Shown here in pieces: positions 35,939 to 56,335 of a stretch of DNA of 64,000 bases. The notes beneath the pieces were generated by a model. It was given only the letters and a program-made list of their open reading frames with translations. It ran no database searches and was not told the origin of the DNA. The stretch covers positions 1,536,001 to 1,600,000 of the forward strand of contig OZ245742.1 of the NCBI GenBank assembly GCA_965227295.1, in the 5' to 3' direction. Each line of letters opens with the position of its first letter. Position 1 is the stretch's first letter. The position numbers and the translations under genes are program-made. This DNA is from Leptonemataceae bacterium (GTDB lineage Bacteria; Spirochaetota; Leptospiria; Leptospirales; Leptonemataceae).

Positions 35939-38185
35939 ATGAGTACGCCTTCGGTTGTCGAACAAAAGCGAGATCATTACGTGCATCCCGCAGAGCACGT
36001 GTACGATCTGCTGCAAATCCTGGATTTGCGTTTGCAGATTCTACTGGAAGAGCTCCCCGATGATGAGGGCGATGCGTCGCCCAATGCGAGGGAGGTCTCC
36101 GGTTTATTCATTGCGCCGGCGGAAGTGCGGCGGTTGCTCGGACGCTCCTCGTTTCGTGAAGGCTCCGCGGCGAATGTCGCCGCGGCCCGGCAAACGCTCG
36201 AACAAAAGGAGCGCGAGATCGAGGAACGCCTCGTTGCGTCCCGGGAACTCAATTCGCATTCGGCCCTGGAAATCCTTGCGGGCATTTTCGGTCTTTCTAC
36301 GGAGGACTGTGACGTTGTTCTCACGTGTCTTGCGTACGTCCTCGACGCCCGCTACGAGAAAGTATTTGCTTTCATTAATAATGATTTAACGAAACCTTAT
36401 CCGACACCCTTGCTTGTTGCGACGATCTTCGGCTACGATGGGCAGCGTCGCGATCGCCTGCGTTCTTGTTTGCGTCCCGATGCGCCCCTCCTGCGCCGCA
36501 TGTTGTTGCGCGCGGATCGTAACGGCGCGTACGGCGAAGGCTCACCTTTCGGCCAACGATTGATGCTCGATGAGCGTGTTGCGGATTTCTTGCTCGGCAC
36601 GGCGCGCGTGGACGGTCGTGCGGCGGAGTATCTTACGTTTGCAAACGGTTCTGCCGCGGATTCGCCGGCCCCGCAGCAGTTGCAACGCGAACTGGATTTC
36701 CTCGCGGATTCTTTGCGCGAGTCCGAAAAGGCGGCGGAATCCGTGCGCCTGTGTTCGTTCTTCGGTGCGCCCGGTTCCGGACGGAGCCGCGCGGCGGCCG
36801 CGGTCTGTGAGGCCGTCGGCCTGCCGGCGTTGCAACTGAACATTCGTCGTCTGGTCGCTTCGGGGGAGGACGTTCGTGAAGCCTTGCGCCGTTCTTTCCG
36901 GGACGCATTGTTACTGCAGGCCGGTTTGATTATTCGCGAACCCGAGTTGTTGCGCTCAACGTTCGTCGAAGATCGTTATCTGTTCGAATTCCTGGAAGCC
37001 GAACTGGCCGTGACGCCGGGACTCTTTTTTATCTGCAGCGCCGGGCGTCTTGAGTGGAATCTTCCCGAGCACGTCGTCATCCGCGAAATCGAATTCGGTG
37101 TGCCGGATTTTGCCACGCGGCGCATGATCTGGGAGCAGCAGTTGAACGGCCGGACCGCAAAGGCGGCCGGCGCCCCGGAAGTGTTCGCGTCGCGCTTTCG
37201 TTTGACCGGCGGTCGCATCCGCCGGGCGATTCGAACGGCCGAAGCCTTCGCGCCTTCCGGAGAAAGCGATGTCTCGCAGCTCTCCGGGCTGGATCTTGCT
37301 TTTGAATCTGCGCTCTTTGAAGAATGTCGCAGCGGCAATAGCTTAAAGCTGGCCGAACTGGCGGTACGTCTGCGACCGAAGTTCGGTTGGGAAGACATTG
37401 TACTTCCGGCGGAACAGCGGAACGAGTTGCGGGATATCTGTACTCACGTTCGTTTTCGCGATCAGGTCTACGACAGCTGGGGGTTTGATGAAACTCTCGC
37501 CGCCGGGTCGGGTCTGAACGTGCTATTCTCCGGGCCGCCGGGGACCGGCAAGTCCATGGCCGCCGGCGTCATTGCGAAGGACCTCGGCCTCGAAATCTAT
37601 CGCATCGATCTTTCTTCGATGGTGAGCAAGTACGTCGGCGAGACGGAAAAGAATCTCTCGCGGATTTTCGATGAGGCGGCGAACTCCCAGGCCATTCTCT
37701 TCTTTGATGAAGCGGATGCGTTGTTCGGAAAACGCAGCGAGGTCAAGGACGCGCATGATCGTTACGCGAACATCGAGACCGGTTACCTTCTGCAAAAGAT
37801 GGAGGAGTTCGACGGCGTAACCATTCTCGCTTCGAACCTTTCGGAGAACCTGGACGACGCCTTTCTGCGGCGATTGCATTTTGTCGTGGACTTTCCCATG
37901 CCGGACGCGGCGGAGCGCGAACATATCTGGAAGCTGGCCTTTCCGGAGAACGCGCCCTTCCTCGAAGAGCCGGACTACGCCGATCTGTCCCGGCGTCTTA
38001 AGATCTCCGGGGCAAACATTAAGAATATTGCTCTGCACGCCGCGTTTTTCGCGGCCTCGGAGGGCCGCGGCATTCTCATGCGCGACGTAATTCAGGCCGC
38101 GCGCCGGGAGTATCGCAAAGAAGGCCGCCCGTTTTCCGGCGCCGAGGCCGGCAACTATCTCAGCCAGGAGGCTGCATCCAGATGA
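35939..38185 (+). CDS. eCIS AAA+ ATPase (Afp15/Pvc15-like)
   Basis: Degenerate first module GAPGSGRS; intact second module GPPGTGKS, SKYVGETEKNL, FFDEADALFGKRSEVKDAHDRYANIE, DDAFLRR. Confidence 0.9.
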   Translation: MSTPSVVEQKRDHYVHPAEHVYDLLQILDLRLQILLEELPDDEGDASPNAREVSGLFIAPAEVRRLLGRSSFREGSAANVAAARQTLEQKEREIEERLVASRELNSHSALEILAGIFGLSTEDCDVVLTCLAYVLDARYEKVFAFINNDLTKPYPTPLLVATIFGYDGQRRDRLRSCLRPDAPLLRRMLLRADRNGAYGEGSPFGQRLMLDERVADFLLGTARVDGRAAEYLTFANGSAADSPAPQQLQRELDFLADSLRESEKAAESVRLCSFFGAPGSGRSRAAAAVCEAVGLPALQLNIRRLVASGEDVREALRRSFRDALLLQAGLIIREPELLRSTFVEDRYLFEFLEAELAVTPGLFFICSAGRLEWNLPEHVVIREIEFGVPDFATRRMIWEQQLNGRTAKAAGAPEVFASRFRLTGGRIRRAIRTAEAFAPSGESDVSQLSGLDLAFESALFEECRSGNSLKLAELAVRLRPKFGWEDIVLPAEQRNELRDICTHVRFRDQVYDSWGFDETLAAGSGLNVLFSGPPGTGKSMAAGVIAKDLGLEIYRIDLSSMVSKYVGETEKNLSRIFDEAANSQAILFFDEADALFGKRSEVKDAHDRYANIETGYLLQKMEEFDGVTILASNLSENLDDAFLRRLHFVVDFPMPDAAEREHIWKLAFPENAPFLEEPDYADLSRRLKISGANIKNIALHAAFFAASEGRGILMRDVIQAARREYRKEGRPFSGAEAGNYLSQEAASR

Positions 38186-38757
38186 CTCTTACCCCCACGT
38201 ATACCGTGATCCGGGACGTCAGCGAGACGTTGCGCAAGCTTGTGCAGGGCAACGTCTCCGAACTTTCGGACATTACCCGGATCGTTTTCGATTCGCCGGC
38301 GGAGATTACCGCCGCGGCCACGCCGAAGCTGTCGCTCTTTCTGTACAAGGTGCGCTACAACAAATATTTGCGCACGAGCCCGCCGGTGCGTACGGGCCAC
38401 GATTCGCAACAGGCCGCTCCGCTGCAGTTGGATCTGATGTATCTCTTCTCTGCACATTCCACGAACATTGAAACGGAAATGATCATTATCGAGAAGATCC
38501 TCGCGTTGTTCTACGACAACCCGGTGCTGCGGGAGCCGGATCTGGAAGGTCAGCTTACGGATAACGGCAACGACGCGCTGCGCATCGTGCCCGATGATCT
38601 TTCCGTGGACGAGATTGAAAAGCTGTGGACCGCGTTTCCGAACAAGGCGTATCGCCTGGCTATTCCGTTTATCGTATCGCCCGTTTGTATTCCCTCCGGG
38701 CGCACCAGCACGGTCAAACCGGTCATCGAGCGGCAGCTCGGCATCGCGCAGACGTAA
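38182..38757 (+). CDS. DUF4255/Pvc16-like tail terminator (cap)
   Basis: IRDVSETL..LSLFLY.V..N..LR..P..LDLMYL..LW..Y pattern; coupled to the ATPase. Confidence 0.82.
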   Translation: MTLTPTYTVIRDVSETLRKLVQGNVSELSDITRIVFDSPAEITAAATPKLSLFLYKVRYNKYLRTSPPVRTGHDSQQAAPLQLDLMYLFSAHSTNIETEMIIIEKILALFYDNPVLREPDLEGQLTDNGNDALRIVPDDLSVDEIEKLWTAFPNKAYRLAIPFIVSPVCIPSGRTSTVKPVIERQLGIAQT

Positions 38758-38774
38758 TTACGAGGAGCATTTGG

Positions 38775-39896
38775 ATGAGTATCAACGTAGCAAACGTATC
38801 TCTGAAAGTATCCATGGCCCTCGCGCCCGAGGACGAGGTGACGGCAAAGTTCCCCGCGCGGAGTTTGTATCTATACTTAACCGACTCGAACGGCAACGTA
38901 CTGCGGCATACGCCGGTCTTTCGTAAAGACGGTTATGTCCTCTTCACGGACCTCGCCGACGCGACGTACGGCATTAACGTCGACTCAAAGTACTACGGTC
39001 TCTTCGAAACACTAACGATCGACACATCCGCCGTGGATCCCATCAACGGCGCGACGACGGTTACGCTGGCGCCGCGCCCGCGTTATCCCTTCGCTTCCGA
39101 TGCTACGTTGCTGCGCGGTACGATCAGCGATTCGTACGGTCATCCCGTGCGAAACGCCCGCGTGGAAATCGAGGGCGGCGGTTTCGACGGAACGTTCGGT
39201 TATACGGACGCGGCCGGTGAGGTCGTGCTGTACTTCGATTCTTCGCCGCCTTCCTCGGTGGACCTGCGCATTTCGAAGGCGGGTTACGTTGATGAAACTC
39301 CGAACATCGCCGTCACTGAAAGTACGAGCACGAGCTTCGGTGATACGCTTACGAACGTCGGCGGCGCCAGTACTTCGGTGCTGATCGGTTATGTTCGTGA
39401 TGCGGACGGCGTGAATGTGACGCGGGCGACCGTGGAAGCGGTGGAGTGGTCGGAGAGTGTAGAGACCGACGCGTACGGTCGGTATCATCTTACGAACGAT
39501 CTTGCCGGTGCCTCGGAGAGCGTGGACCTGAAAGTCACGCATCCCGGAATCGATACGAAGACGGTCACGGTTACCGCAGAACAGGATACGACGACGAGTA
39601 CGAACATCGACGTCGTGCGAGCGGCGGACACGGACGACGTGGCGATCCTGGAGGTCGGCGTCATCGATTCCTCCGCGGCGGTGGACGACGTACTCCTGCA
39701 CATTCTGGAACGAGACGTAGCCGCATTTACCGCGGGCGGGGGCCTTGCACGTTTTTACTTTAGCGCGGCGGACAGTGCAAAGCCTGAAACGGTTTCGCTT
39801 TTTATCAACAAATCAGGGTATTTCGAGAGTATTCAATCCGTAAAGTTGCAGCGCGGCAATACGACGCAGGTTAAAGTGCGTATGCGCGAAAGCTAA
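38775..39896 (+). CDS. Carboxypeptidase-regulatory-like (beta-sandwich) repeat protein
   Basis: Repeated LRGTISDSYGHPVRNARV..TDAAG / LIGYVRDADGVNVTRATV..TDAYG and ISKAGY/INKSGY; L.P.P.YPF..ATLLRG motif. Confidence 0.7.
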   Translation: MSINVANVSLKVSMALAPEDEVTAKFPARSLYLYLTDSNGNVLRHTPVFRKDGYVLFTDLADATYGINVDSKYYGLFETLTIDTSAVDPINGATTVTLAPRPRYPFASDATLLRGTISDSYGHPVRNARVEIEGGGFDGTFGYTDAAGEVVLYFDSSPPSSVDLRISKAGYVDETPNIAVTESTSTSFGDTLTNVGGASTSVLIGYVRDADGVNVTRATVEAVEWSESVETDAYGRYHLTNDLAGASESVDLKVTHPGIDTKTVTVTAEQDTTTSTNIDVVRAADTDDVAILEVGVIDSSAAVDDVLLHILERDVAAFTAGGGLARFYFSAADSAKPETVSLFINKSGYFESIQSVKLQRGNTTQVKVRMRES

Positions 39897-39987
39897 TTGT
39901 TTTCGATTTAAGTTTAGTAAGTTTAATATTAAGGAGTTTGGAGTCGTAGAATTGTTTCGAAAGCTCCGGGCAGTTTAGGAGGGCAGA

Positions 39988-41499
39988 ATGCCGACATATC
40001 TATCACCAGGTGTGTATGTAGAAGAAGTGCCGGCCGGCACCCAGCCCATCGAGGGCGTGGGTACGTCCACGGGGGCTTTCGTAGGAATCGCAGACCGCGG
40101 TCCGGTCGACGAACCAAAGCTCATTACGAATTTCACGCAATACGTGGAAACGTTCGGGCGATACGGCGCGTCGGGGGATCCAGGTTTTCTGGCGCATTCC
40201 GTTTTTTCGTTTTTCGCTGAAGGCGGAACTCGTTGTTACGTCGTTCGTGTTTTGGGGCCGGCTGCCGCCGCGGCAACCGCGACTCCGCAGGAGACTTCCA
40301 CGGATTCTTTTACGATGACGGGGTTGATCAAGGGAGAATGGGGAAACCGTCTCAGCTACATGATCGAAGATCCGGGTACCGAGTCCGCGACCACTCACTT
40401 CAAGCTTACGATTCGCCATACCGAGAATATCGGCGGACGGCTCGTAAACACGGACGAGGTATACGACGACACGACTGCCACGACCGTAAACGCCGCTGTA
40501 AACGGGGTTTCGGCTCACGTATCGATCACTCTGGACAACGATGTTCGACCGGATAACACGAGTGACTTCGTCGCATTCACCGGCGGCGACAGTGACGAAA
40601 GCAACATCGATTTCATCGGCACCGTAGCCAGCGGCTCCGATCTCGGCACCGCGTTGCACGCTCTCGACCCCATCGATGAAGTCAATATTCTCGTCGTGCC
40701 GGATATTACGGACCGGGCTGATCATAGCGGCATTCTGAGTTGGTGCGAGCAGCGCGGTGACGTATTCGCCGTACTCGATACGCCGGCGGGCATCGATCCT
40801 TCGGCCGCGAAGGACTACAAGACGGCCTCGGGTTCGTACTCAGGTAATCCGTTCAACAGCGCCTACGGCGCATTGTACTACCCGCGGGTGTACGTCCGTG
40901 ATCCCAACGGCGGGGCGTCGCCGGTCTTGATTCCGTCTTCGGGTGCTGTTGCCGGTACTTACGCCAATACGGATGCGACTCGCGGTGTGTTTAAGGCTCC
41001 CGCAGGCACCGTGGATGGCGCACTGGCTTCCGTGGTCGGTCTCGAACGCCAGGTTACGATGGGCGAACACGACATCCTGAACCCGGAAGGCGTGAACGTA
41101 ATCCGCACATTCCCGTCTTCGGGCATTGTAATCTGGGGCGCGCGTACTCTTTCGGATCTCGCCGAAAACCGTTACGTTCCCGTGCGTCGTCTGCTGCTGT
41201 TCTTACAGGAGTCGCTCGACGAGGGCACGCAGTTCACCGTCTTCGAACCGAACGATCCGACGCTGTGGGGTAAGGTCCGCCGTACGTTGAACGCGTTCCT
41301 GACGCGAGTCTGGCGCGACGGCGCTCTCTTCGGCAACACGCCGGAAGAAGCGTTCTTCGTGAAGGTCGACGAAGAGAACAATCCGCCCGCCGTACGTGAC
41401 GCGGGTCAACTGATCGTCGAAGTGGGCGTCGCTCCCGTGAAACCCGCGGAATTCGTGATCATCCGCATCCAGCAGCAGTCCACGATTACGGGCAGCTGA
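39988..41499 (+). CDS. Contractile tail sheath protein
   Basis: MPTYLSPGVYVEEV, RGVFKAPA, LNPEGVNVIR, WGARTL, YVPVRR, VFEPN, APVKPAEFVIIRI. Confidence 0.96.
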   Translation: MPTYLSPGVYVEEVPAGTQPIEGVGTSTGAFVGIADRGPVDEPKLITNFTQYVETFGRYGASGDPGFLAHSVFSFFAEGGTRCYVVRVLGPAAAAATATPQETSTDSFTMTGLIKGEWGNRLSYMIEDPGTESATTHFKLTIRHTENIGGRLVNTDEVYDDTTATTVNAAVNGVSAHVSITLDNDVRPDNTSDFVAFTGGDSDESNIDFIGTVASGSDLGTALHALDPIDEVNILVVPDITDRADHSGILSWCEQRGDVFAVLDTPAGIDPSAAKDYKTASGSYSGNPFNSAYGALYYPRVYVRDPNGGASPVLIPSSGAVAGTYANTDATRGVFKAPAGTVDGALASVVGLERQVTMGEHDILNPEGVNVIRTFPSSGIVIWGARTLSDLAENRYVPVRRLLLFLQESLDEGTQFTVFEPNDPTLWGKVRRTLNAFLTRVWRDGALFGNTPEEAFFVKVDEENNPPAVRDAGQLIVEVGVAPVKPAEFVIIRIQQQSTITGS

Positions 41500-41530: not shown

Positions 41531-41974
41531 ATGGCAACCGGAGATAGAATCGATCCGTTTCTCGGGTTTCGTTTCCGTGTGGAGATCGACGGCATTCAAA
41601 CCGCCGCGTTCTCCGAGGCGACGATCCCCGATACGACCACCCAGACCGCCGACTACCGCGAAGGTACCGACGTCAAGAACGTGCGCAAGCTGTCCGGTCT
41701 GAACCAGTACGGCAACGTTACGCTCAAGAAAGGCCTGAGCACCGGTCGCGAACTCAGTGACTGGCAGAACCTCTGCGAACAGTTCGGCGCGGCGAAGAAC
41801 CGCCGCACGATCTCGCTGATCCTGGTCGACGACGAAGGCAACGACTCGGCGCGCTGGGACGTACGCGAAGCGTGGCCGACCAAAATCAACACCACGGGCT
41901 TCAACGCCACGGGTAACTCCGTGATGATCGAAACCCTGGAAATCGTCAACGAAGGCGTGAGCCGGGTGGCGTAA
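41531..41974 (+). CDS. Tail tube protein (T4 gp19-like, Afp1)
   Basis: DPFLGFRFRVEIDG, YREG, KLSG, VTLKKG, AWPTK, IETLEI. Confidence 0.93.
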   Translation: MATGDRIDPFLGFRFRVEIDGIQTAAFSEATIPDTTTQTADYREGTDVKNVRKLSGLNQYGNVTLKKGLSTGRELSDWQNLCEQFGAAKNRRTISLILVDDEGNDSARWDVREAWPTKINTTGFNATGNSVMIETLEIVNEGVSRVA

Positions 41975-41983
41975 GTAAGATGC

Positions 41984-42013
41984 GCCGGGCGGTGTTCCGC
42001 CCGGCTATATTCT
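41984..42013 (+). terminator. Stem-loop after the major tube gene (partial terminator or mRNA stabiliser)
   Basis: GCCGGGCGG-TGTT-CCGCCCGGC followed by TATATTCT and an AT-rich spacer. Confidence 0.55.
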
Positions 42014-42061: not shown

Positions 42062-42445
42062 ATGATGACGGAAGAAAGAGTGCAGACGGAGTTCGATTTC
42101 GAACTACCGCACGGCTACGTCGACCCGGAAACGGGCGCCGTACACAAAGTCGGAACCATGCGCCTGGCCACGGCGGCGGACGAGATCCTGCCCATGCGTG
42201 ATCCGCGGGTGCAGCAGAATCCGGCCTATTTAACGGTAATACTTTTATCCCGGGTGATTACCCGATTGGGAAGCGCGGGGAACGTAAGCCCGCGTACGAT
42301 TGAGAATCTCTTCGCGGCGGACTTCGCGCATCTACAGGAAATGTACAATCGCGTGAACCAGCACGGTGCAAACTCCGTGGCCGCGAAGTGTCCCGGCTGC
42401 GGTCACGCCTTCGAGGTGGAGGTGGATGCGCCGGGGGAGGGGTAA
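42062..42445 (+). CDS. Tail assembly chaperone-like protein (short form)
   Basis: TEFDFELPHGYVD..G.MRLATAADEI..NPAYL..LSRVI..LFAADF..L, CPGC, ends PGEG*; lies right after the tube gene. Confidence 0.78.
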   Translation: MMTEERVQTEFDFELPHGYVDPETGAVHKVGTMRLATAADEILPMRDPRVQQNPAYLTVILLSRVITRLGSAGNVSPRTIENLFAADFAHLQEMYNRVNQHGANSVAAKCPGCGHAFEVEVDAPGEG

Positions 42446-42648
42446 GGGGCTATCCCCTCGATCGAATTTACGAGGAGATAGCCTTCGTTTCGTACCATTT
42501 TCACTGGGATCACGCCACGTTGCTCCGTATGGAGCACCCCGAGCGTAAACGCTGGTGCGAGGAGATCAGTAAGATCAATCGCCGGCTGAGTGAAGAAGGT
42601 GAGGAGCGGTCCCTGGCTGCAGGCGTCGGAGAGCGAAGCATCTTTTAG
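42433..42648 (+). CDS. DUF6760 / P2 gpE'-like segment, probably expressed by -1 frameshift from the upstream chaperone
   Basis: YEEIAFVSYHFHW..LLRMEH.ER.RW.EEI in the -1 frame, with no start codon near the conserved segment. Confidence 0.72.
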   Translation, partial: GGGVRGYPLDRIYEEIAFVSYHFHWDHATLLRMEHPERKRWCEEISKINRRLSEEGEERSLAAGVGERSIF

Positions 42649-42687: not shown

Positions 42688-43209
42688 ATGCCGGTTATCG
42701 GATTTGGAACAGCGGCGGCCATCGCCAAACGTGTCACGGGCACGCGCTTTGACCCGTTCATGGCGTACAACTTTCACCTGGAAATCGACGGGCTCATCGT
42801 CGGCGGGTTTCAGTCCATCTCCGGTCTCAGCATGACCACGGAAGTGAAGAAGTATCAGGAGGGCGGCCGCAACGACTTTGATCATCAGTTTCCGACGCGC
42901 ACGACGTATCCGGATCTCGTGCTGAAGCGCGGGATGTCCGACGTGGATCAGCTCTTCGGTTGGTACTACGACGTCACCCGCGGCATCGTGAAACGCAAGA
43001 GCGGTACGATCTACCTTCTCGATGATAACAGCGTGCCGATTACCTGGTGGGACTTCGAAGACGCCTTCCCGACGAAGTGGGAGGGGCCGTCCCTGGAATC
43101 CGGAAACACCGCCATCGCCACGGAGAGCATGACTCTCGTGCATCAGGGATTGAAACGCTCCGAGACGGCGCGTCTGTTGTCCGCGTTCCGAACGGTCCTG
43201 GGTGGATAA
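42688..43209 (+). CDS. Second tail tube protein (gp19-like, Afp5)
   Basis: DPFMAYNFHLEIDG, FQSISGL, YQEGG.N, LVLKRG, AFPTKWEGP. Confidence 0.92.
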   Translation: MPVIGFGTAAAIAKRVTGTRFDPFMAYNFHLEIDGLIVGGFQSISGLSMTTEVKKYQEGGRNDFDHQFPTRTTYPDLVLKRGMSDVDQLFGWYYDVTRGIVKRKSGTIYLLDDNSVPITWWDFEDAFPTKWEGPSLESGNTAIATESMTLVHQGLKRSETARLLSAFRTVLGG

Positions 43210-47626: not shown

Positions 47627-50600
47627 ATGGCACTACCGACGCCGATTATTGATCGCCGGGATCAGAAGGCCCTGGCGGAGAAACTGCGCGAACTCATCGT
47701 AACTTACGCGAGCGAGTGGCCGGACGTCGCCGCGGTGGAAGCCGACGGCCAGGTGGATGCCCTGGTGCAGATCTTCGCGCGCTTTTATGAAGTGATCAAC
47801 GAGCGCTTGAACGGCGTACCCGATCGAAACTTTCTGACGTTTCTGGAAATGGCCGGCGTGGACATCGATCCGCCCCGGGCCGCGGCGACGCCGTTGGTCT
47901 TCCAGGCCGCGGAAAACGTAACCGCGGACGTTACGGTACCGGTCGGAACGCAGATCATCGTGGAGGGCAGCGAAGACGATCCGATCATCTTCGAAACGCG
48001 CGAGTTGCTCACGACGATCACGGCGCGCCTGAATCGCATCGTTTCGCTCGAACCCACGGCGGATCGTTATACGGATCATGTCTCGCTGCTGGATCCGGAC
48101 GCCCGGGATGTGGAGACCCTGCTTACCGGAAAGACTCCGCTCACGCACCGGCTGTTCTTCGGTCATGACGTACTCTTTGATTACAAAGACGCGGCCACCG
48201 TGCGCGTTCATACAAGCATCAAGACGCCGGTGTCGTTTCCCTCGAATCAATGGAACGTCGACTGGTTTATTTATACACAGGAGTCGGACGATCCGGTGAA
48301 ACTCACCCCGGTGATTGACGACGTCGTCGTGGACACGGACGTGAAGAACCTGCTGCGCGGCGGCACGATCACCTTCGAAAACGTTGAGGGAATTTCGAAC
48401 GAGGAAATCGGCGGCTACGTCTTCAAAGAAAGTGCGGCTCTGACCTGGAACACATTAACATCAGACAAAAGATGGTTAGTGGCCGAGCTTACGTCTTCGC
48501 TGCCGGCGCAGACCTACTCGAAACTGGAAGATCAGGAGGCCGAAGAGGCTTACTTTAACGCCACGGAGTATGACCCCGCCGGATCGTTCCGGCCGTTCGG
48601 GGTGGATCCGACGCTGGGCGATCGTTTGAACGTGGCCCACGTGGACGTCCTCGATCAACCCGGCGCGACGATCACCCTGGACTTTGATCTGAGCCAGGTC
48701 GGTACCACCACGGACATTAACATTGAGTGGCAGTACCTCGAAGGTTCGCTCTGGAAAAAGATCGGCTTCACCGGTTTCGGCGGCGTCACCGACGCGGGCG
48801 ACTACCGGTTGGAGGACGATACGAACGGTTTTAAGCAGTCCGGCCAGGTGCGTTTCATCTGCCCGACGTTTTCGCCGGCTCTGGCGAACAGTATTACGAA
48901 TCGCTGGATTCGCGCGATCATTCGCGGCGGTGAGTACGCGAACGGTGCCGAGCCGGTGGTCTCGGCCATGACGATCGGCTACACCTACGTGCCGGAATTG
49001 CTGACGCTCCAGGTGGAAACCGAACTCAGTCCGGAGGCGCCGCAACAGGCGGATCACGCTTACCTGAACGGCCAGATCCTCGACACCGGGCGGGACTTCT
49101 ATCCCTTCGGCGAGACTCCGGCTTTTAACGATACGTTTTATTTCGCTCTGGAAGCGGCCTTCGCGAATGAGGGCGCAAACATCACAATAGACGCGGTACT
49201 TTCCGAGTCGCGTCCGGCGCCTTCGACCCTGGGTCGTGAGATCACTCTGGCATTGGAATACTTTGACGGTTACGATTGGTCCGAGATCGCCCGGCTGGCG
49301 GAGGACGGCGTGGACAGCCCGATGTCGGGCGTCACCGACGAGACCTACGCCTTTACCGTACTGGATACGGATACGCAGATTAGCTTTACCTGCCCGGATG
49401 TTAGGAAAGTCACGATCAACGGCATCGAAGACTACTGGCTGCGCTTTCGCATCGTGGACGGCGACTACGGCCAGCCGGCGAGTTACGACGGCGGAACGGA
49501 AACGTATACGAACGCCACATACGTCCCGCCGTCCCTCGAAAAGTTCCGCATCGATTACTCGTTCACGACCACCGAGGATCCGGAGCAGTTGATCTTCGAA
49601 AATGAATTCTTCTTCGCCGACGAAACCGCTGCGCTCATCGCGAACAACGCAACTCCGGCGAGCGCAAGTCCCATTACATTCTTTCGTACCAGCGGAGATC
49701 TTTCCCCGGCGCTCTATCTTTCGTTTGACCGGGACATTCAGAGTCTGCCCATCAACCTGTTCTTTCCGATTCTGGCGTCGCCGTTCCAGGTGACGAACGA
49801 CAGCGAACCGCCCACCATGCTGTGGGAGTACTGGGACGGCAGCGAATGGCAGGTCACCTCGTTCAACGACGGGACCGTCGGACTCACCCGCGGCGAGATC
49901 GCCCAGGTCCTGGTGCCCGGCGACTCGAAGGCACGGCCCATCTTCGGCAATGCAGCGAACTGGATTCGAGTCCGCCTGGAAGCCGGGACCTTCGTAACAA
50001 ATCCCGAGGTCGATCGGCTGTATGCCAATGCCGTCTGGAGCGACAACGTCGTAACCATTCGCGATGAACTCTTAGGCTCTTCCAACGCGGAACCGGATCA
50101 GCGCTTTAACCTGGCGCGTTTTCCGGTCTTGCAGGGGCAGCAGATTCTCGTGCGGGAAGCGGCGATTACAAAAGAAGATCGCGCGGAGATCATTGCCGAA
50201 GAAGGCGAAGACGCGATTACGGAGATTACCGACGAGGCGGGAAACGTTACGGACATCTGGGTGCGCTGGCATCAGGTTACTCGTTTCGAAGGTTCGGGTC
50301 CGCAGAGTCGGCACTATATCTTCGATGCGTTGAAAGGCGAGATTCTATTCGGCAACGGCGTGCGCGGTTATCTGCCTCCGGCCGGTCGCGACAACATCCG
50401 CGCGGGATTCTACCAGTACGGCGGCGGGACGGCCGGAAATGTCGAAGCGTTCGAAATTGTTCGACCGCGCTCGGCGCTCGTGGGCATCGAAGAGGTCTTT
50501 AATCCGAGCAACGTCAGCGGCGGTGTGGATCTGGAGAGCCTGGAGCGTTTACGTGAGCGCGGGCCGCGGACCATTAAGAATCGCGGAAGAGCGATTACGC

Positions 50601-51628
50601 CGGACGATTTCGAGGCTCTGGCCTTCGAAGCCACGGGAGAAATCGCGCGCGTGCGTTGTCTGGCGACAACGGACCCTTCACTGATGTTCGCCCCGGGCTG
50701 GGTTACGATCTTGATCGTTCCCATCTCCACGGACCTCAAACCGGTGCCGTCTCAGGAATTGATTCGAGCCACCACGGACTACGTGCGCAGCCGTTCCCTC
50801 AGTCATTTGATCGACGACTCGCCGGTGCGTGTCAACGTCCTCGGACCGGGCTATGTCAACGTCTATGCCGAACTGGATGTGGCCTACAAGAACATCAACG
50901 AGGCGCGGCTGGTGCAGGATCGCATCAACAAGGCGCTGAATACTTTCTTGCATCCGCTTACCGGCGGGGACGCGGGCACCGGCTGGCCCTTCGGCCGTAA
51001 CGTCTACGCAACGGAAATTTACGAACTGGTGGAAAGCGTGGCGGGCGTGGACTACGTCGCCCAGGCCGTGTTACGCGCTGCCGAACACATCTTTTACGTA
51101 TACCCGGTGAACGCCTTTACGCCGTCGGCGCCGTATCCCGCGGGCAGTCTGCTGCGCATTACCCGCGGCGCTTTCCAGGCGGACCTGCGCACGGGCGAAC
51201 TGTTGCGCGAGGACGAAAGCATCAGCCGGGTGACGGTGCTGGGATTCAAAGAAGGCGACGTGGTTACGCTCTACGATACCGGCATGCAGAATCCGCTGAA
51301 CCTGGAAGTCACGGGGATCTCGGGCGTGAACATGTCGGTGCGCGCGGCCTTCGCGAACGTTTCGTACGGAGTCGGCAGTACCGTGTGCAGTGCGGACAAA
51401 CGCGTCCAGATCAGTGTCACCGAAGCGGTTTCCGTGGGTGAATTCACGAACCTGGTGTTGATGATTCCCCAGGCCGAGGATGCCTTCGAACTCCAGGCGC
51501 AGGACCTGGCCACCATTCGCGGCGAGTTCTCCGACGTCTCGGATGAGGTCGAGGTCGTAATCCTCGGTCCGAACAACTTAACGTATCCGGGGACGCACGT
51601 TATTCGCGCCCTTCAGGAGGGATCGTAA
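47627..51628 (+). CDS. Large baseplate J-like wedge protein (Afp11-like) with internal beta-sandwich repeats
   Basis: RLNGVPDRNFLTFL, LGSSN.EP.Q.F.L, FGNG..G..PP.G, GGG..GNV, RAIT..DFE, LHPLTGG..G.GWPFGR. Confidence 0.88.
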   Translation: MALPTPIIDRRDQKALAEKLRELIVTYASEWPDVAAVEADGQVDALVQIFARFYEVINERLNGVPDRNFLTFLEMAGVDIDPPRAAATPLVFQAAENVTADVTVPVGTQIIVEGSEDDPIIFETRELLTTITARLNRIVSLEPTADRYTDHVSLLDPDARDVETLLTGKTPLTHRLFFGHDVLFDYKDAATVRVHTSIKTPVSFPSNQWNVDWFIYTQESDDPVKLTPVIDDVVVDTDVKNLLRGGTITFENVEGISNEEIGGYVFKESAALTWNTLTSDKRWLVAELTSSLPAQTYSKLEDQEAEEAYFNATEYDPAGSFRPFGVDPTLGDRLNVAHVDVLDQPGATITLDFDLSQVGTTTDINIEWQYLEGSLWKKIGFTGFGGVTDAGDYRLEDDTNGFKQSGQVRFICPTFSPALANSITNRWIRAIIRGGEYANGAEPVVSAMTIGYTYVPELLTLQVETELSPEAPQQADHAYLNGQILDTGRDFYPFGETPAFNDTFYFALEAAFANEGANITIDAVLSESRPAPSTLGREITLALEYFDGYDWSEIARLAEDGVDSPMSGVTDETYAFTVLDTDTQISFTCPDVRKVTINGIEDYWLRFRIVDGDYGQPASYDGGTETYTNATYVPPSLEKFRIDYSFTTTEDPEQLIFENEFFFADETAALIANNATPASASPITFFRTSGDLSPALYLSFDRDIQSLPINLFFPILASPFQVTNDSEPPTMLWEYWDGSEWQVTSFNDGTVGLTRGEIAQVLVPGDSKARPIFGNAANWIRVRLEAGTFVTNPEVDRLYANAVWSDNVVTIRDELLGSSNAEPDQRFNLARFPVLQGQQILVREAAITKEDRAEIIAEEGEDAITEITDEAGNVTDIWVRWHQVTRFEGSGPQSRHYIFDALKGEILFGNGVRGYLPPAGRDNIRAGFYQYGGGTAGNVEAFEIVRPRSALVGIEEVFNPSNVSGGVDLESLERLRERGPRTIKNRGRAITPDDFEALAFEATGEIARVRCLATTDPSLMFAPGWVTILIVPISTDLKPVPSQELIRATTDYVRSRSLSHLIDDSPVRVNVLGPGYVNVYAELDVAYKNINEARLVQDRINKALNTFLHPLTGGDAGTGWPFGRNVYATEIYELVESVAGVDYVAQAVLRAAEHIFYVYPVNAFTPSAPYPAGSLLRITRGAFQADLRTGELLREDESISRVTVLGFKEGDVVTLYDTGMQNPLNLEVTGISGVNMSVRAAFANVSYGVGSTVCSADKRVQISVTEAVSVGEFTNLVLMIPQAEDAFELQAQDLATIRGEFSDVSDEVEVVILGPNNLTYPGTHVIRALQEGS

Positions 51629-51653
51629 CTATCACTGCTGCGAGGTTAACATC

Positions 51654-52586
51654 ATGCCTATACCCATACCCGAACTGAACGATCGTAATTTCGAAAGCCT
51701 CATGGAAGAGGCCCGGGCGCTGATTCCCCGCTACAATTCGAAGTGGACGAACTACAATCCCTCGGACCCGGGCATCACGCTGCTTGAGCTCTTCGCCTTT
51801 CTGTGCGAGCAGACGCTCTACCGCGTGAATCGCGTACCGCTGAAAAACTTCGAGGCCTTTCTCAAGCTATTGGGCATCACCGTGGCCGACGGCGAGAGCA
51901 TCGAAAGCGGCATCCTGCGGGCGCGGGCGTTGCTGGAAGAACGTTATCGCACGATTACGCCGGCGGACTACCAGGCCGTGGTTCTCGAAAAAATGGAAGA
52001 GCTGCTCACCGGTCTCGGCGGTCGTGCCATCGTCATGAACAACGTGGACCTGGAGTTCGCTCCGCCGACGATCGTGGACCTGGAATCCATCAGCAAAGAG
52101 GCGCATGTGAGCGTCATTATCGTTCCACGCTGTGATACCGATGACGGGACCTACTGCGACGCGGACTCGCTGCCGCTGCCCGTTCCCACATCGACGCTCT
52201 TAAGTGAAGTCAGTACGCGATTACAGGAACGCCGGTTGATCGGCATGCGCGCCCACGCGGTGGCGCCGCGGTATCGGACGTTAAACTTAACGGCCTGGCT
52301 GGTGCCGCAGCCGGACTTTCAGGGCGACATCGTTCAGACCGTGCAGGATTCGGCGAAGGCGTTTTACGATCCCCTGGACGGCGGCCCGGACGGAACCGGC
52401 TGGCCGTTGGGCCGGGACGTGTATCGTTCGGAGTTCTTTCAGATCTTAGAAAGCACGCCTGGTGTTGATTTCGTTCAGCGCATTACCATGAACAGCGCCG
52501 ACGCCGACGTCGTCGTGCAACCCTGGGAACTGGTGAACCTCGCATCGATTACGGTGAATCTGGTCGATGCCAGCATTACGTTGTAG
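51654..52586 (+). CDS. Short baseplate J-like wedge protein
   Basis: L.DR.F..L..EA..IP.Y..WTNYNPSDPGITLLELFA, DPLDGGPDGTGWPLGR. Confidence 0.85.
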   Translation: MPIPIPELNDRNFESLMEEARALIPRYNSKWTNYNPSDPGITLLELFAFLCEQTLYRVNRVPLKNFEAFLKLLGITVADGESIESGILRARALLEERYRTITPADYQAVVLEKMEELLTGLGGRAIVMNNVDLEFAPPTIVDLESISKEAHVSVIIVPRCDTDDGTYCDADSLPLPVPTSTLLSEVSTRLQERRLIGMRAHAVAPRYRTLNLTAWLVPQPDFQGDIVQTVQDSAKAFYDPLDGGPDGTGWPLGRDVYRSEFFQILESTPGVDFVQRITMNSADADVVVQPWELVNLASITVNLVDASITL

Positions 52587-52594
52587 GTAAGTTT

Positions 52595-53371
52595 ATGCCG
52601 GAAGAATCTAAGTACTTAAAGTATCTACCGTCGGTTTATCGCGAAGACGGAGACGGTGTTCAGGAAGGTTTCATGGGCCGCTTCCTGCAGGCCTTCGAGG
52701 AAATGCTCGAGGGTGCCGGAAGCGGAAGTGATCCGGCCGGCGTGCACACGCTGGTAGAGGACATCGCGAATTACTTCGATCCCGACTTCGCGCCGGCGCA
52801 GTTCATCGACTGGCTGGCCGGCTGGGTGGCTCTCGAGCTGCAACAAACCGCCGACTGGATGGAAGACGATTACGGCGAAACCACCGCCGTGGTGGATCAG
52901 GTGCAACCGTTCGCCGCGGCGCGAGATACGCGCAACCGGAACCTCATTAAGAACGCGGCGAGCCTGTATCAGAAGCGCGGTACGCGCAACGGAATGCAGG
53001 AGCTGCTGGCGATCTATGCGAAGCTCGCGCCGGGTACGCCGCCGGAGGACATCGAGAAATTTGTCCGCATCATCGAGGCGACGAATCTCTTCCAGATCGG
53101 CGTCACGACGATCATTGGTACGCAGACGAGCATCGGCGAACGGCCGCACTATTTCCAGGTGGAGATCGTGATTCCGGCACCGGACCCGGTCGCTCTCACC
53201 AATTACAAACGTTCGGTGGCGAATGTCATCGATGCCGAGAAGCCGGCGCATACGTACTACGACTTGATCGTTACGGTTCCGACCATGCAGGTCGGTGAGA
53301 CCGCCACGGTGGGTGTGGATACGCTGCTCGGCACCACGACGGAAGCCCCGGAAATCGAAGAGGAAGCATAG
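52595..53371 (+). CDS. Phage tail protein I-like baseplate component
   Basis: YLPSVYRE, RFL..FE, YFDP..AP..F..WLAGWV, LY.KRGT..G, EKPAHT. Confidence 0.85.
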   Translation: MPEESKYLKYLPSVYREDGDGVQEGFMGRFLQAFEEMLEGAGSGSDPAGVHTLVEDIANYFDPDFAPAQFIDWLAGWVALELQQTADWMEDDYGETTAVVDQVQPFAAARDTRNRNLIKNAASLYQKRGTRNGMQELLAIYAKLAPGTPPEDIEKFVRIIEATNLFQIGVTTIIGTQTSIGERPHYFQVEIVIPAPDPVALTNYKRSVANVIDAEKPAHTYYDLIVTVPTMQVGETATVGVDTLLGTTTEAPEIEEEA

Positions 53372-53408
53372 GCTAAATACAGATTACTAATAGTTACGGA
53401 GTATTAAT

Positions 53409-54911
53409 ATGGCAGAAGATGATCTGAAACGAGTTCGATATTTTAACGGCTTGATTATGCAAGAGGAGGACTTCATCCTTGAGCAGGACTATCACATCAA
53501 GCTGCAACGGCTGCACAACCGGCACCTGCACGGGGCCGGCATCGTGTTCGGCCTGGAAGTGGAGCTGATCGACGCGGAGAACGTGCGGGTTACCCCCGGC
53601 ATGGCGCTCGACGAATCCACGGACGGCCCCGACGACGTCAGCCGCGAAATATATCTTACGGGCGAAGAGGAAGTGAACCTGGGGTTACACCCGGCGGGTA
53701 CCGAGTACTACATCTGGATTTCTTACACTGAGGCGCCGGACCCGATGGACGTGTATCCGGCGAAAGGCGGCTCGGAGCCGATCTACATTGCGCAGACCGG
53801 TCAGGTCAACTTCGGTGAGTCGTTGCCGGAGGGCGCGAATTCTACCGAGATCATTCTGGCCCGGGTCGTCTACACGGCGAGCGGGGACCTCGACGGCACG
53901 AGCATAACGTACCTGGACGACGAGGACAAATCGTTGCGCCTGCTTTCCAGTTTCAAAGCGGATTCAGCCGAATTTGAAAGGCTTACGTTACGCCACGATA
54001 ACGACGCCGATCCGACCTACGCGCGCCTGGACGGTTTTTTCTTCAGCGACACGGGCGATAACGGCATCAACGCCGTCTCGGATCGCACGCGCTTTTTTGG
54101 TCGGGTGGACGTCGACGAAGAACTGCACGTTACCCAGGACGGAAACTTTGACATCGACATCAACGTAACGGCCGACGCCAACATTGGAGGCGACGTCATT
54201 GTGACCGGCGAGATGCGATCGACGAATGCGAGTGGTAAGCTGGAGATCAACGATGCCGTCCACGTGGCGGAGTCTTTGGACTTGAGCACCGGCGCGACGG
54301 TGAATGAGTTCTCGACGGACGGCACCATGGCCGACGACAGCGATACGGCCGTGCCGACGGAACAGGCGGTGAAGACGTACGTGGACGCGAAGATCCAGGA
54401 GTTCATCGACGATCAATTGGTGGGCTGCGTGGCGGCATTCGCAGTCGATAGTCCACCGGACGGCTGGTTGGAATGTAACGGCGATGATGTCGATCGAACG
54501 ACCTACGCGAACCTCTTTGCAAGAATTCAAACCACCTTCGGCGCAGGAAATGGAACCACAACTTTCAACATTCCGGACCTGCGGGGTGAGTTCATTCGCG
54601 GCTGGGATCATGGCGAAGGCAACGATCCGGATGCAGCGTCGCGAACGGATAGTGGCGACGGCACCACCGGTGATAATCTGGGTACGAAACAAGCGGATGC
54701 TTTTCAGGATCACGGGCACGATCATCAGTATGCGCTGTACGCAGATACCGGCGGCAGTGGTATTTTCGCCTCGGGTAGCACAGGGCCGGATGTTGGTGTC
54801 ACGGGCGGGATAATTCATACTCCGGAAGCTTATGGAGCGAACCCTGCACCCAGATTCACTTCCGAAACCCGCCCGCGCAACGTGGCTCTGATGTACTGCA
54901 TCAAGTACTAA
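53409..54911 (+). CDS. Tail fibre 1 with C-terminal tail-collar domain
   Basis: N-terminal KRVRYFNG..EEDF..EQ.YH..RLHN..LH..GIV.GLEV; collar P.GWL.CNG..R.TY..LF..TTFN.PDLRGEFIRG; ends ETRPRNVALMYCIKY. Confidence 0.85.
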   Translation: MAEDDLKRVRYFNGLIMQEEDFILEQDYHIKLQRLHNRHLHGAGIVFGLEVELIDAENVRVTPGMALDESTDGPDDVSREIYLTGEEEVNLGLHPAGTEYYIWISYTEAPDPMDVYPAKGGSEPIYIAQTGQVNFGESLPEGANSTEIILARVVYTASGDLDGTSITYLDDEDKSLRLLSSFKADSAEFERLTLRHDNDADPTYARLDGFFFSDTGDNGINAVSDRTRFFGRVDVDEELHVTQDGNFDIDINVTADANIGGDVIVTGEMRSTNASGKLEINDAVHVAESLDLSTGATVNEFSTDGTMADDSDTAVPTEQAVKTYVDAKIQEFIDDQLVGCVAAFAVDSPPDGWLECNGDDVDRTTYANLFARIQTTFGAGNGTTTFNIPDLRGEFIRGWDHGEGNDPDAASRTDSGDGTTGDNLGTKQADAFQDHGHDHQYALYADTGGSGIFASGSTGPDVGVTGGIIHTPEAYGANPAPRFTSETRPRNVALMYCIKY

Positions 54912-54952
54912 AGAATAAAAAACTAACGGCATATACTTAAGGAGCAATCATC

Positions 54953-56335
54953 ATGGCAAAACCCGTTAAACGATTACGCTATTTCGACGGACTCTTTCTC
55001 CGTGAAGAGGAGTTCAACGACGAACAGGAACACTACACCCGTCTGCGGCGGTTGCATAACCGCTACCTGCACAGCAACGGGATCGTCTACGGCCTGGAGG
55101 TCGAACCGGGCGGCAGCGCGGATTCCGTATCGGTAACGAAGGGTATGGCCCTGGATCGCTACGAAGACGGTGACATCGGGGACAGTCTGAGCCGGGAGAT
55201 CATCTTACGAGATGCCGAAGAAGTCAGCCTGCAACAGTACGATCCTTCCGACGAGGTGTGGCTGTGGATCGCGTACGGCGAGTCCCAGGCCGACGCCGAT
55301 GCCGGCGGCAATCCGACGCGCTACGAGGAGATCCCGCAAATCATACACGGCACGACCATGCCCACCGGCGACGCGAACATCATCCTCGCGCGCATTGTCA
55401 TGCCCGCCGGCTCGATTACGGAATCGGACATTTTCGATACCGACGGCTCGTCGAATCCCATCCGTAAACTGGCGGGTTTCCAGGGTGGCAGTGTCAGTAC
55501 CGATACCCTCATTCTCACGGACGATGATTTCGGGACGGATCCGCCGACTCTGGACGGCTTCTACTGGAGCGGTACGGATGATCGCGGCGTGAAATTCAAT
55601 TCGGACCGCACCCAGTTTTCCGGCGACGTGGAAATCGACGAAACACTCACCGTCACGCAGGATGCGACGTTTTCCGCGAACGTCAGCGCCGGCGGTACGA
55701 TGAGCGTTACCGGAAACACCACGCTCAGTGGCAATGCAGGCATCGGCGGTACACTCACAATTCAAGGCTCCGTATCCGTGGACGAGGTCTCCGACGATGA
55801 TACCATGGCCGATGCCAGTGCTACCGCGGTTCCCACGGAACGTGCGGTACGGGAATACGTCGAGTCTCTGCTGGTCGGTTCGATCACCGCGTTTGCCATG
55901 CAGGAGGCCGATCTTCCGGACGGCTGGGTGGTTTGCGACGGCCGAGAAATCAGCCGCACGACTTACGCGCGACTGTTCGGGAAGATCAGCACAAATTACG
56001 GGACCGGAGACGGATCCACGACGTTTAACGTGCCGGACCTACAGGGTGAGTTCATTCGCGGTCTTGATGCAACGGCGGGCAACGACCCGGACTCGCCGCG
56101 CGCGGTGGGTTCCAGTCAGGCTGATGCGTTTCAGGGGCACTGGCACGATCATCCTCACGAGATGTTCTGGAATGACGGTAGCCCGAACAACGTGGCATCG
56201 AGCAATCAGATTACGATGAACAATGAGATCAACGCGGTTAGAGATCCTTCCAGCGACGGCGTCAACGGTACCCCGCGCACATCATCCGAAACCCGCCCCC
56301 GCAACGTGGCAATGCTGTACTGCATCAAAACGTAA
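54953..56335 (+). CDS. Tail fibre 2 with C-terminal tail-collar domain (paralogue of fibre 1)
   Basis: Same architecture: KRLRYFDG..EEEF..EQ, AVPTE.AV..YV, PDGW..CDG..TTFNVPDLQGEFIRG, ETRPRNVAMLYCIK. Confidence 0.85.
   Translation: MAKPVKRLRYFDGLFLREEEFNDEQEHYTRLRRLHNRYLHSNGIVYGLEVEPGGSADSVSVTKGMALDRYEDGDIGDSLSREIILRDAEEVSLQQYDPSDEVWLWIAYGESQADADAGGNPTRYEEIPQIIHGTTMPTGDANIILARIVMPAGSITESDIFDTDGSSNPIRKLAGFQGGSVSTDTLILTDDDFGTDPPTLDGFYWSGTDDRGVKFNSDRTQFSGDVEIDETLTVTQDATFSANVSAGGTMSVTGNTTLSGNAGIGGTLTIQGSVSVDEVSDDDTMADASATAVPTERAVREYVESLLVGSITAFAMQEADLPDGWVVCDGREISRTTYARLFGKISTNYGTGDGSTTFNVPDLQGEFIRGLDATAGNDPDSPRAVGSSQADAFQGHWHDHPHEMFWNDGSPNNVASSNQITMNNEINAVRDPSSDGVNGTPRTSSETRPRNVAMLYCIKT

Follow-up and report, generated by a model that had tools for sequence, protein, structure and literature searches.

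The 64,000-nucleotide stretch analysed here (the window; positions 1,536,001 to 1,600,000 of contig OZ245742.1 from a Leptonemataceae bacterium) carries, at 35912-56335 on the plus strand, 19 intact and co-oriented genes that almost certainly encode a contractile injection system (CIS), that is, a headless particle resembling a phage tail. The set of parts is complete and comprises an AAA+ ATPase, a DUF4255 cap, one sheath, two gp19 tubes, a chaperone with its DUF6760 partner, a tape-measure candidate, a tube initiator, a split VgrG hub and spike, PAAR, gp25, a long and a short Cis11, Cis12, and two fibres. We regard these genes as an intact and vertically kept operon. On balance, we lean towards an extracellular mode of action, which the gene content makes likely and does not establish. 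Pfam, NCBIfam, and PHROGs models name nearly all of the 19 genes, as listed below (open reading frame, ORF; amino acids, aa; expectation value, E).

35912..38185, plus strand: Cis15-type AAA+ ATPase, 757 aa (Pfam WHD E 4e-37, AAA E 5e-32; alternative start 35939)
38182..38757, plus strand: Cis16 cap / tail terminator, DUF4255 (Pfam Pvc16_N E 3e-37)
38772..39896, plus strand: 374-aa accessory protein, four tandem beta-sandwich (CarboxypepD_reg/Ig-like) domains (Pfam CarboxypepD_reg E 4e-16)
39988..41499, plus strand: Cis2 contractile sheath, 503 aa (Pfam Phage_sheath_1 and 1C; PDB 8BKY/8BL4 E 1e-101, 2e-98)
41531..41974, plus strand: Cis1 inner tube, gp19 family (Pfam Phage_T4_gp19 E 1e-39; NCBIfam CIS1_fam E 8e-21, under cut-off)
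42062..42445, plus strand: tail assembly chaperone, 127 aa (PHROG 508 'tail assembly chaperone' E 6e-9; weak Pfam Gp41_Mu)
42388..42648, plus strand: DUF6760 frame, -1 relative to the chaperone (Pfam DUF6760 E 1e-17; frame open from 42304, domain from ~42460)
42688..43209, plus strand: Cis5 tube adaptor, gp19 family (Pfam Phage_T4_gp19 E 5e-41; NCBIfam CIS5_fam E 9e-34, under cut-off)
43237..44301, plus strand: tape-measure candidate, 354 aa (position and pattern: conserved ends, variable low-complexity middle)
44283..45026, plus strand: Cis7 tube initiator (Pfam CIS_tube E 1e-23; weak LysM at residues 179-218, NCBIfam E 3.7e-4, under cut-off)
45046..46137, plus strand: Cis8 N-terminal part, gp27-like hub (ORF opens at 44941; NCBIfam VgrG_rel positions 5-348 of 547; PHROG 52 tail protein E 3e-22)
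46134..46805, plus strand: Cis8 C-terminal part, gp5 OB-fold spike (Pfam Phage_base_V E 6e-27; VgrG_rel positions 367-529)
46817..47212, plus strand: Cis10 PAAR spike tip (Pfam PAAR_motif E 2e-13)
47231..47623, plus strand: Cis9 gp25-like sheath initiator (Pfam GPW_gp25 E 3e-28)
47627..51628, plus strand: long Cis11, 1333 aa (Pfam Baseplate_J; TIGR02243 E 4e-63; PDB 9GTP Cis11 E 3e-57)
51654..52586, plus strand: short Cis11 paralogue, 310 aa (TIGR02243 E 3e-42; 9GTP Cis11 E 2e-40)
52595..53371, plus strand: Cis12-like wedge protein, Tail_P2_I (Pfam Tail_P2_I E 4e-7; NCBIfam CIS12_fam E 8e-22, under cut-off)
53409..54911, plus strand: fibre A, 500 aa (Pfam Collar E 1e-21; CIS13_fam E 5e-12, under cut-off; PDB short tail fibres E 2e-10 to 1e-6)
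54953..56335, plus strand: fibre B, 460 aa, paralogue of fibre A (Pfam Collar E 6e-20)

The sheath (Phage_sheath_1/1C) and both gp19 tubes score above the Pfam cut-offs, and they are accompanied by the cap (Pvc16_N), the ATPase (WHD plus AAA), and a baseplate set consisting of CIS_tube, VgrG_rel (over two genes), PAAR_motif, GPW_gp25, Baseplate_J/TIGR02243, and Tail_P2_I. Intergenic gaps do not exceed 92 nucleotides (nt), and several genes overlap by 4 nt. The initial annotation had described about 19 co-oriented genes with the ATPase and cap in front, and its list of parts, their positions, and their order all hold. Two details required adjustment: the start at 35939 is the second in-frame ATG of an ATPase ORF that opens at 35912, and the supposed LysM initiator is a CIS_tube protein, the LysM portion reaching a sub-threshold match only.

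The locus had also been called intact, and we agree. No CIS gene appears broken, since each protein aligns over nearly its full length with a congener homologue. The site is shared with two congeneric genomes, where the CIS genes are likewise flanked by PilZ/PNPOx on one side and an MBL-fold hydrolase plus aminotransferase on the other, and where the CIS proteins are 44-87% identical over their full length (44% for the ATPase and 53% for the long Cis11). The flanking genes of these congeners show 80-83% identity for the hydrolase and 58-61% for PNPOx. The G+C content of the locus does not differ from that of the genome (0.55-0.59 vs 0.598), and neither a tRNA nor flanking direct repeats were found at the locus ends. 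In one of the congeners (G002, L097), there is no match to the Cis15 ATPase between PNPOx and the cap, while the other CIS genes are all present.

By analogy with solved homologues, the baseplate would form around the split Cis8 hub and spike with PAAR at the tip, and each wedge would probably pair a long with a short Cis11 and add one Cis12. The tube would start from Cis7 and Cis5, and its length would be set by the tape-measure protein held by the tail-assembly chaperone; the Cis1 tube and Cis2 sheath would polymerise from gp25, Cis16 would cap the particle, and the Cis15 ATPase may assist maturation or loading. Most likely, particles would be released from a fraction of the cells, the two gp12-like fibres would bind a surface glycan of another cell, and sheath contraction would drive tube and spike through the target envelope. 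The locus itself encodes no cargo; DUF4157 proteins from other places in the genome may provide it, or puncture alone might kill.

Placing this machine among known systems relies mainly on the sheath. Against solved structures, the window sheath scores 344 and 334 bits with Streptomyces CIS-Sc (8BKY, 8BL4), 308 bits (E 9e-91) with the haloarchaeal CIS (9EZM), and 161 to 129 bits, over the C-terminal part only, with PVC, Anabaena CIS, AFP, and AlgoCIS. We also computed a quick maximum-likelihood tree of 83 sheaths (that of the window, those of 80 named loci, and, as outgroup, the two others of the genome), with support from the Shimodaira-Hasegawa-like approximate likelihood ratio test (SH-aLRT) and without bootstrap. 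The window sheath, on a long branch (0.62), falls within a clade of six spirochaete sequences (SH-aLRT 97), which is nested in a clade of 22 rows that also takes in Methanoperedens, Nitrospirota, Accumulibacter, Bacillota, Fibrobacter, and Desulfobulbia (SH-aLRT 97). The sister group of this larger clade is made up of 59 rows from Chloroflexota, Actinomycetota (Kitasatospora, family Streptomycetaceae, among them), and Dormibacterota (SH-aLRT 100). The tape-measure candidate occurs in the 22-row clade as opposed to its sister, and PAAR and cap are detected more often in it. As far as we found in the literature, the sheath clade of the window has no studied member. The assignment to the Afp/PVC/MAC class made initially is thus not borne out: judged by its low sheath scores with that class and its place in a separate, uncharacterised clade, the locus is not Afp/PVC-class in the strict sense.

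Several features argue for an extracellular mode of action. Both fibres combine a Cis13-type N-terminus with a receptor-binding domain, are predicted to be soluble, and have C-termini resembling T4 short tail fibres. Fibre N-termini are conserved and C-termini are divergent across the family and in relatives from other phyla, as expected of receptor-binding proteins. The locus contains a tape-measure candidate and PAAR, whereas CIS-Sc is reported to lack a tape measure and a conventional fibre, and S. coelicolor to lack PAAR (PMC10066040). No transmembrane candidate was seen in any of the 19 CIS proteins, and no conserved membrane partner was found, the one membrane gene next to the locus being detected in none of six sheath-positive relatives.

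Set against these features are the closest studied relatives, which act inside the cell or from the membrane (PMC10066040, PMC11566945). For this reason we infer the extracellular mode only, and the initial description as a tailocin-like extracellular CIS (eCIS) is not supported as written. Homology does not settle the matter, as the locus belongs to an unstudied clade. Further points weigh on the same side. The two best-scoring solved groups are cytoplasmic (Streptomyces) or membrane-anchored and T6SS-like (haloarchaea; T6SS, type VI secretion system). Fibres are no proof of an extracellular mode either, because the haloarchaeal CIS also has Cis13, together with two Cis11 and Cis12 and a suggested membrane contact (PMC11566945). 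Among the 19 genes, there is no toxin, DUF4157, or other effector-like gene (Pfam, NCBIfam, DUF4157 model), all 17 DUF4157 matches of the genome lie outside the window, and neither a lysis cassette nor an effector was seen in the locus. The tape measure is a candidate assigned by position and a shared C-terminal motif, and the NCBIfam CIS1/5/12/13 matches all fall under the curated cut-offs.

A cell-associated particle would account for some of these points. It could be anchored to the inner membrane in the manner of a T6SS, as in haloarchaea and Amoebophilus, or lie free and act in stress-induced cell death, as in Streptomyces CIS-Sc and the thylakoid CIS of Anabaena. The sheath scores point in this direction, as does the placement of two Cis11, Cis12, and Cis13 at the membrane contact of the haloarchaeal particle (PMC11566945), and the missing lysis and cargo genes fit it as well. 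Moreover, a gene for a 645-aa protein with ~12 membrane segments (12-TM; 56369-58306) starts 34 nt after fibre B, with no predicted terminator in between. We nevertheless regard a cell-associated particle as unlikely, if by no means negligible. The 12-TM protein was found in none of the six sheath-positive relatives and resembles GT-C/PMT_2 glycosyltransferases in the ESM Atlas (a lead only); it was accordingly dropped as a CIS membrane anchor, and the locus thus ends at 56335. No transmembrane candidate was seen in the 19 CIS proteins themselves, and the particle would need to get through a diderm envelope with no TssJLM to help it. Phage-type receptor-binding fibre C-termini, PAAR, and the tape-measure candidate are likewise hard to reconcile with a CIS-Sc-like particle, which is reported to lack fibres and tape measure (PMC10066040); and the window's clade is sister to the Streptomyces-type clade, not within it.

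The genes that follow the fibres differ among three congeners: a GT-C-like 12-TM protein in the window, PMT_2 in a second (L098:9657-10943, G002; a divergent PMT_2 gene occupies the 12-TM slot in this congener only), and an SGNH/AlgX-like protein plus a methyltransferase in a third (L094:12175-13743, G001). All of them are envelope-glycan enzymes.

The particle could also be a bacteriocin without cargo, comparable to R-type tailocins, in which released particles puncture close relatives and the fibres set strain specificity. The lack of any toxin, DUF4157, or effector-like gene among the 19 and the bare 131-aa PAAR domain are in keeping with this idea, and the post-fibre glycan enzymes might, speculatively, modify the producer's own receptor. 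We consider it improbable all the same: R-tailocins are not known to have a Cis15 ATPase or a DUF4255 cap, and in PVC-type systems the ATPase is linked to cargo loading. In addition, the 17 DUF4157 domains elsewhere in the genome could supply cargo in trans, DUF4157 being reported as highly eCIS-specific (PMC8213781).

As initially proposed, capsid, terminase, integrase, TssJLM/K, and ClpV are absent from the 39 further window ORFs (Pfam, E<=1e-5; 59 window ORFs scanned in all). Genome-wide, models for TssK and TssC (VipB) gave no match in 5.94 Mb, with positive E. coli controls, while TssJ/L/M, ClpV, and terminase were not searched at that scale. The sheath is of the phage/CIS type, and the gene set is not that of a canonical T6SS. 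IMG/VR holds at least 80 loci with sheaths 35-39% identical over the full length. In 80 such viral loci (tblastn), one tube was present in 71, the spike in 24, gp25 in 33, and a short Cis11-like wedge protein in 36; ATPase, cap, chaperone, DUF6760, Cis7, hub, PAAR, Cis12, and the tape-measure candidate were found in none, including the 30 loci of at least 15 kb. The absence of these CIS-specific genes from the viral loci sets the locus apart from phage tails. That it is a decaying prophage tail remnant without present function can therefore be set aside as highly improbable: viral contigs hold counterparts of the sheath, one tube, the spike, gp25, and the short Cis11 at 23-43% identity, but all 19 ORFs are intact and full length relative to relatives, the site is shared by three congeners with CIS proteins 44-87% identical, the base composition matches the genome, head, terminase, integrase, and att-like repeats were not found at the locus or in the window, and the CIS-only genes have no viral match. 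The viral wedge protein is closer to the short Cis11 (31-43% identity) than to the long one.

The chaperone/DUF6760 pair and the tape-measure candidate were overlooked in the initial annotation. Of 80 related loci, 74 have the chaperone, with 51-72% identity, and its relatives carry the name 'phage tail assembly protein/chaperone' in public sources. DUF6760 lies in the -1 frame of the chaperone in 73 of the 74 related loci with both genes, and its sole upstream start in the window is GTG 42388. At the end of the chaperone gene lies the following element.

42433..42483, plus strand: candidate -1 frameshift signal (G GGG GAG at 42433-42439, stop TAA at 42443-42445, hairpin at 42448-42483)

The signal is widely shared. 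A run of 5-7 G, one to two codons ahead of the chaperone stop, is present in 74 of 75 loci (window included) and begins at codon position 3 in 73 of 75, whatever the residue (CCG, CTG, CAG, GCG, TTG, TCG, AAG, or ACG). As for the exceptions, one locus has the run in another phase, and one was missed through an upstream frame break, its printed junction holding the run. The hairpin begins 5-8 nt 3' of the heptamer. Across 22 sequences from the clade of the window, RNAalifold recovered 11 pairs with only 4 of 242 cells broken, and three pairs show compensatory changes (GC to AU in 2 sequences, CG to UA in 5, and CG to UA in 1). The 66 nt that follow the G-run surpass at least 95% of 200 synonymous recodings in folding stability in 47 of 73 loci, a count of related loci and hence not of independent trials; for the window, none of 200 recodings was as stable. 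We therefore consider it probable, from these sequence patterns, that chaperone and DUF6760 are joined by a programmed -1 frameshift. The same -1 frameshift layout is seen in the G/GT chaperones of phages and the E/E+E' chaperones of P2.

Ordinary stop-start coupling in place of a frameshift is the rival explanation here. The codon overlapping the chaperone stop is GTG in 38 of the 75 loci, ATG in 15, ATA in 15, CTG in 5, and GTA in 2 (the window being one of these), and coupling could occur at any of them. An ATG or GTG thus overlaps the stop in 53 of 75 loci, and the NCBI annotation of a Kitasatospora plasmid gives two coding sequences with a 4-nt overlap. However, of the 22 loci without ATG or GTG at the stop, 15 lack a canonical start throughout the open -1 frame, leaving DUF6760 without a possible canonical start in 15 of 75 loci. 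No in-frame fusion of chaperone and DUF6760 was found among the best 120 of 7995 scored relatives; the one long match (P0003, 211 aa) is a tandem chaperone duplication. We found no publication on DUF6760 or on a CIS chaperone frameshift. The junction suggests that many CIS use the frameshift trick of phage G/GT. The pair is also present in Streptomyces-type loci, and the junction could help to explain the fixed length of the Streptomyces particle.

The 354-aa protein that follows Cis5 has no match to a family (Pfam, NCBIfam, PHROG) or a solved chain. Related loci carry ORFs of 331-1086 aa in the same slot between Cis5 and Cis7, conserved only in the first ~35 and the last ~40 residues, the latter with the motif ADRVYK..E.R...E..RRG; it is on these grounds that we regard the protein as a candidate tape measure. 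A loading signal common to the tape measure and DUF4157 proteins was considered and dropped, as the motif is found in none of the 17 DUF4157 proteins of the genome. The chaperone pair of Streptomycetaceae-type loci is followed by a very large ORF, such as one of 1243 aa annotated as DUF4157 on a Kitasatospora plasmid (L099:12632-16363). Another such locus has a 1333-aa ORF after the pair with the C-terminal motif of the tape-measure candidates of the window's clade (L082:12647-16648). Such large ORFs may bear on how CIS-Sc sets its length.

At the distal end of the particle, hub and spike are split, as the two genes match the N- and C-terminal parts of the VgrG_rel model; the split is retained in three relatives. 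The long Cis11 consists of an N-terminal region of 80 aa, an insertion of ~890 aa, and the Baseplate_J core, and the short paralogue shares the N-terminal 80 residues and the core and lacks the insertion (BLASTP E 6e-18, 9e-9). The Streptomyces baseplate structure 9GTP contains a single Cis11, of 652 aa, which both paralogues match. Given that the Streptomyces wedge contains two Cis11 and one Cis12 (PMC12237407), a wedge of long Cis11, short Cis11, and Cis12 is a reasonable proposal here. Fibre A has a Cis13-type N-terminus and a T4 gp12-like collar and receptor-binding C-terminus, and fibre B is 42% identical to it over the full length. Fibre N-termini were also found 3' of the CIS in four of five genomes tested (two Methanoperedens, one Accumulibacter, and one Leptospirales), the Chloroflexi genome being the one without them.

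At the other end of the operon, the cap is one of three DUF4255 genes in the genome. The 374-aa accessory protein is all-beta in its AlphaFold2 model (predicted local distance difference test score, pLDDT, 84), for which a fold search returned generic pilin/Ig-like chains only; sequence searches gave no match to solved structures, neither a signal peptide nor a membrane segment was seen, and a homologue lies 5' of the sheath in 10 of 80 related loci. The single sheath gene of the locus is preceded by a weak promoter-like site at 39923-39952 (consensus match only), and a further element follows the tube gene.

41984..42005, plus strand: G+C-rich hairpin directly 3' of the tube gene, 9 GC pairs (consensus scan only; without clear U-tract)

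This hairpin is possibly an attenuator or mRNA stabiliser, and hairpin and promoter-like site together could raise the dosage of sheath and tube.

The flanks had been described as Leptospiraceae-like, and the host assignment agrees with our results: the five closest sheath loci in the collection of named genomes come from a 'Leptospirales bacterium' or an 'uncultured Leptospiraceae bacterium', and the genome encodes the spirochaete flagellar sheath protein FlaA. The other 39 window ORFs comprise sugar and envelope enzymes, RF-1, regulators, and cyclic di-GMP proteins (Pfam). A large polysaccharide cluster occupies 650-16716 of the window, with a nucleotidyl transferase, an ABC-2 transporter, an asparagine synthase-like enzyme, and seven glycosyltransferases. 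The upstream neighbour of the CIS is a MORN-repeat lipoprotein on the minus strand (34659-35270); the plus-strand ORF 34632-35468 was rejected as spurious in its favour. A TetR-like C-terminal remnant without start or N-terminal domain, recognised by eye, lies at 34010-34435 on the minus strand, and the plus-strand ORFs listed over it and over 34659-35270 are spurious.

Sheath genes were found in 7 of 41 related genomes, this one included, with 6 of 24 in the same family and 0 of 16 in the sister family; some of the 41 genomes are incomplete, so that zero means not found rather than absent. One family member (G019, L095:2392-5776) has, 3' of the fibres, a PG_binding_1 protein and a second ATPase, apparently split into one ORF for WHD and another for AAA. 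No CIS of Leptospirales or Spirochaetes was found in the literature, nor is one mentioned in the main texts of PMC8213781, PMC12923769, PMC10598620, and PMC11297309. This agrees with the earlier remark that no characterised eCIS was known in the lineage and makes the present CIS the first found for Leptospirales within that literature.

The locus had been called stand-alone, which is true of the locus itself and not of the genome. Two further CIS loci are present on the same chromosome, at ~2,793,954-2,818,434 and ~5,706,418-5,726,961, each complete-looking with ATPase, cap, sheath, tube(s), and baseplate; their sheaths are 43-44% identical to the window sheath in the C-terminal half only. The former has three DUF4157 proteins between ATPase and sheath, and the latter encodes a 1316-aa Cis11-like protein with a WD40 beta-propeller insertion as well as a T4_baseplate-domain protein. 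The DUF4157/eCIS_core model matches 17 places in the genome and none in the window. Several are in or beside the two other CIS loci, five are clustered near 2.47 Mb (2.466-2.473 Mb), and others lie at, for example, 4.79, 4.94, and 4.98 Mb, with ORFs of up to 1272 aa and many of them far from CIS loci. The DUF4157 proteins are possible trans-encoded cargo.

Taken together, we offer a tentative synthesis, which we hold to be somewhat more likely wrong than right. An unstudied CIS clade of spirochaetes, Methanoperedens (archaea that oxidise methane with nitrate), and several bacterial phyla would have kept phage-style tail building, with a chaperone extended into DUF6760 by a -1 frameshift (G GGG GAN, 5-8 nt spacer, 12-bp hairpin) and a tape measure of variable length, and the spirochaete would draw on a common pool of DUF4157 cargo for three different CIS, this one among them. 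If true, this would amount to a sizeable arsenal against other cells in a spirochaete.

Phage-tail-like injection clusters are common in bacteria and CIS are being engineered as protein-delivery tools, with only a handful of systems from two narrow lineages understood. The present locus adds a compact, complete, and apparently functional CIS from a diderm spirochaete lineage for which the literature yielded none. The window's clade sits between outside-acting and inside-acting systems, and the mix of fibres, PAAR, and tape-measure candidate with a Streptomyces-like sheath and Cis11 makes the locus well suited to finding out which parts determine how such a particle acts.

Among studied systems, CIS-Sc (S. 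coelicolor / S. venezuelae; 8BKY, 8BL4, 9GTP) is the closest, with the best-scoring solved sheath and the best Cis11 match. It is assigned to dbeCIS subtype IId (PMC10066040) and, like the window locus, has a single sheath gene and a Cis16-only cap; its wedge of two Cis11 and one Cis12 (PMC12237407) fits the long Cis11, short Cis11, and Cis12 found here, and the chaperone/DUF6760 pair is shared with Streptomycetaceae-type loci. CIS-Sc is reported to lack a conventional fibre and a tape measure (PMC10066040, PMC12237407), PAAR is missing in S. coelicolor (PMC10066040), and characteristic partners are single-transmembrane effectors and a CisA-like transmembrane and sugar-binding protein (PMC10066040, PMC12237407). 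In contrast, the window locus has two fibres, PAAR, the tape-measure candidate, and a Cis11 of 1333 aa that carries a large insertion, and it has neither single-transmembrane effectors nor a CisA-like membrane protein. With these fibres, the tape-measure candidate, no transmembrane candidate, and a sister-clade position, it does not conform to a Streptomyces-type cytoplasmic CIS, which acts in the cytoplasm of a Gram-positive host, whereas the host here is a diderm spirochaete.

The T6SS-like CIS of Halogeometricum borinquense (9EZM; PMC11566945) has the third-best solved sheath and likewise combines two Cis11, Cis12, and Cis13. That article describes spread of haloarchaeal CIS by horizontal transfer and the need for a conserved six-transmembrane anchor gene beside the cluster. 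Here, no conserved multi-transmembrane anchor gene accompanies the cluster, the adjacent membrane gene being found in none of the six sheath-positive relatives, and the envelope is diderm in place of an S-layer. Afp, PVC, MAC, and AlgoCIS, the classical eCIS of dbeCIS subtype I, match the window in their part list (Cis1, 2, 5, 7-16), the long Cis11, and the lack of head and T6SS membrane genes, and the collar-domain fibres recall Pvc13 (PMC12923769). Their sheaths, however, are far more distant (129-161 bits over the C-terminal part only) and are encoded by three genes versus one, whereas the window locus opens with ATPase and cap, carries the chaperone/DUF6760 pair and candidate tape measure between its tube genes, and has no toxin genes at its 3' end.

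We found no study of any member of the 22-row clade, which the window locus shares with loci from Candidatus Methanoperedens, Nitrospirota, Accumulibacter, Clostridia, and Desulfobulbia. Their sheaths are 49-51% identical to that of the window, the gene order agrees, including the chaperone pair, tape-measure candidate, PAAR, and a split or adjacent hub and spike, and fibre N-termini lie downstream in two Methanoperedens and one Accumulibacter genome. The loci differ in their hosts, which include archaea, in the length of the candidate tape measure (331-1086 aa), and in the C-termini of their fibres.

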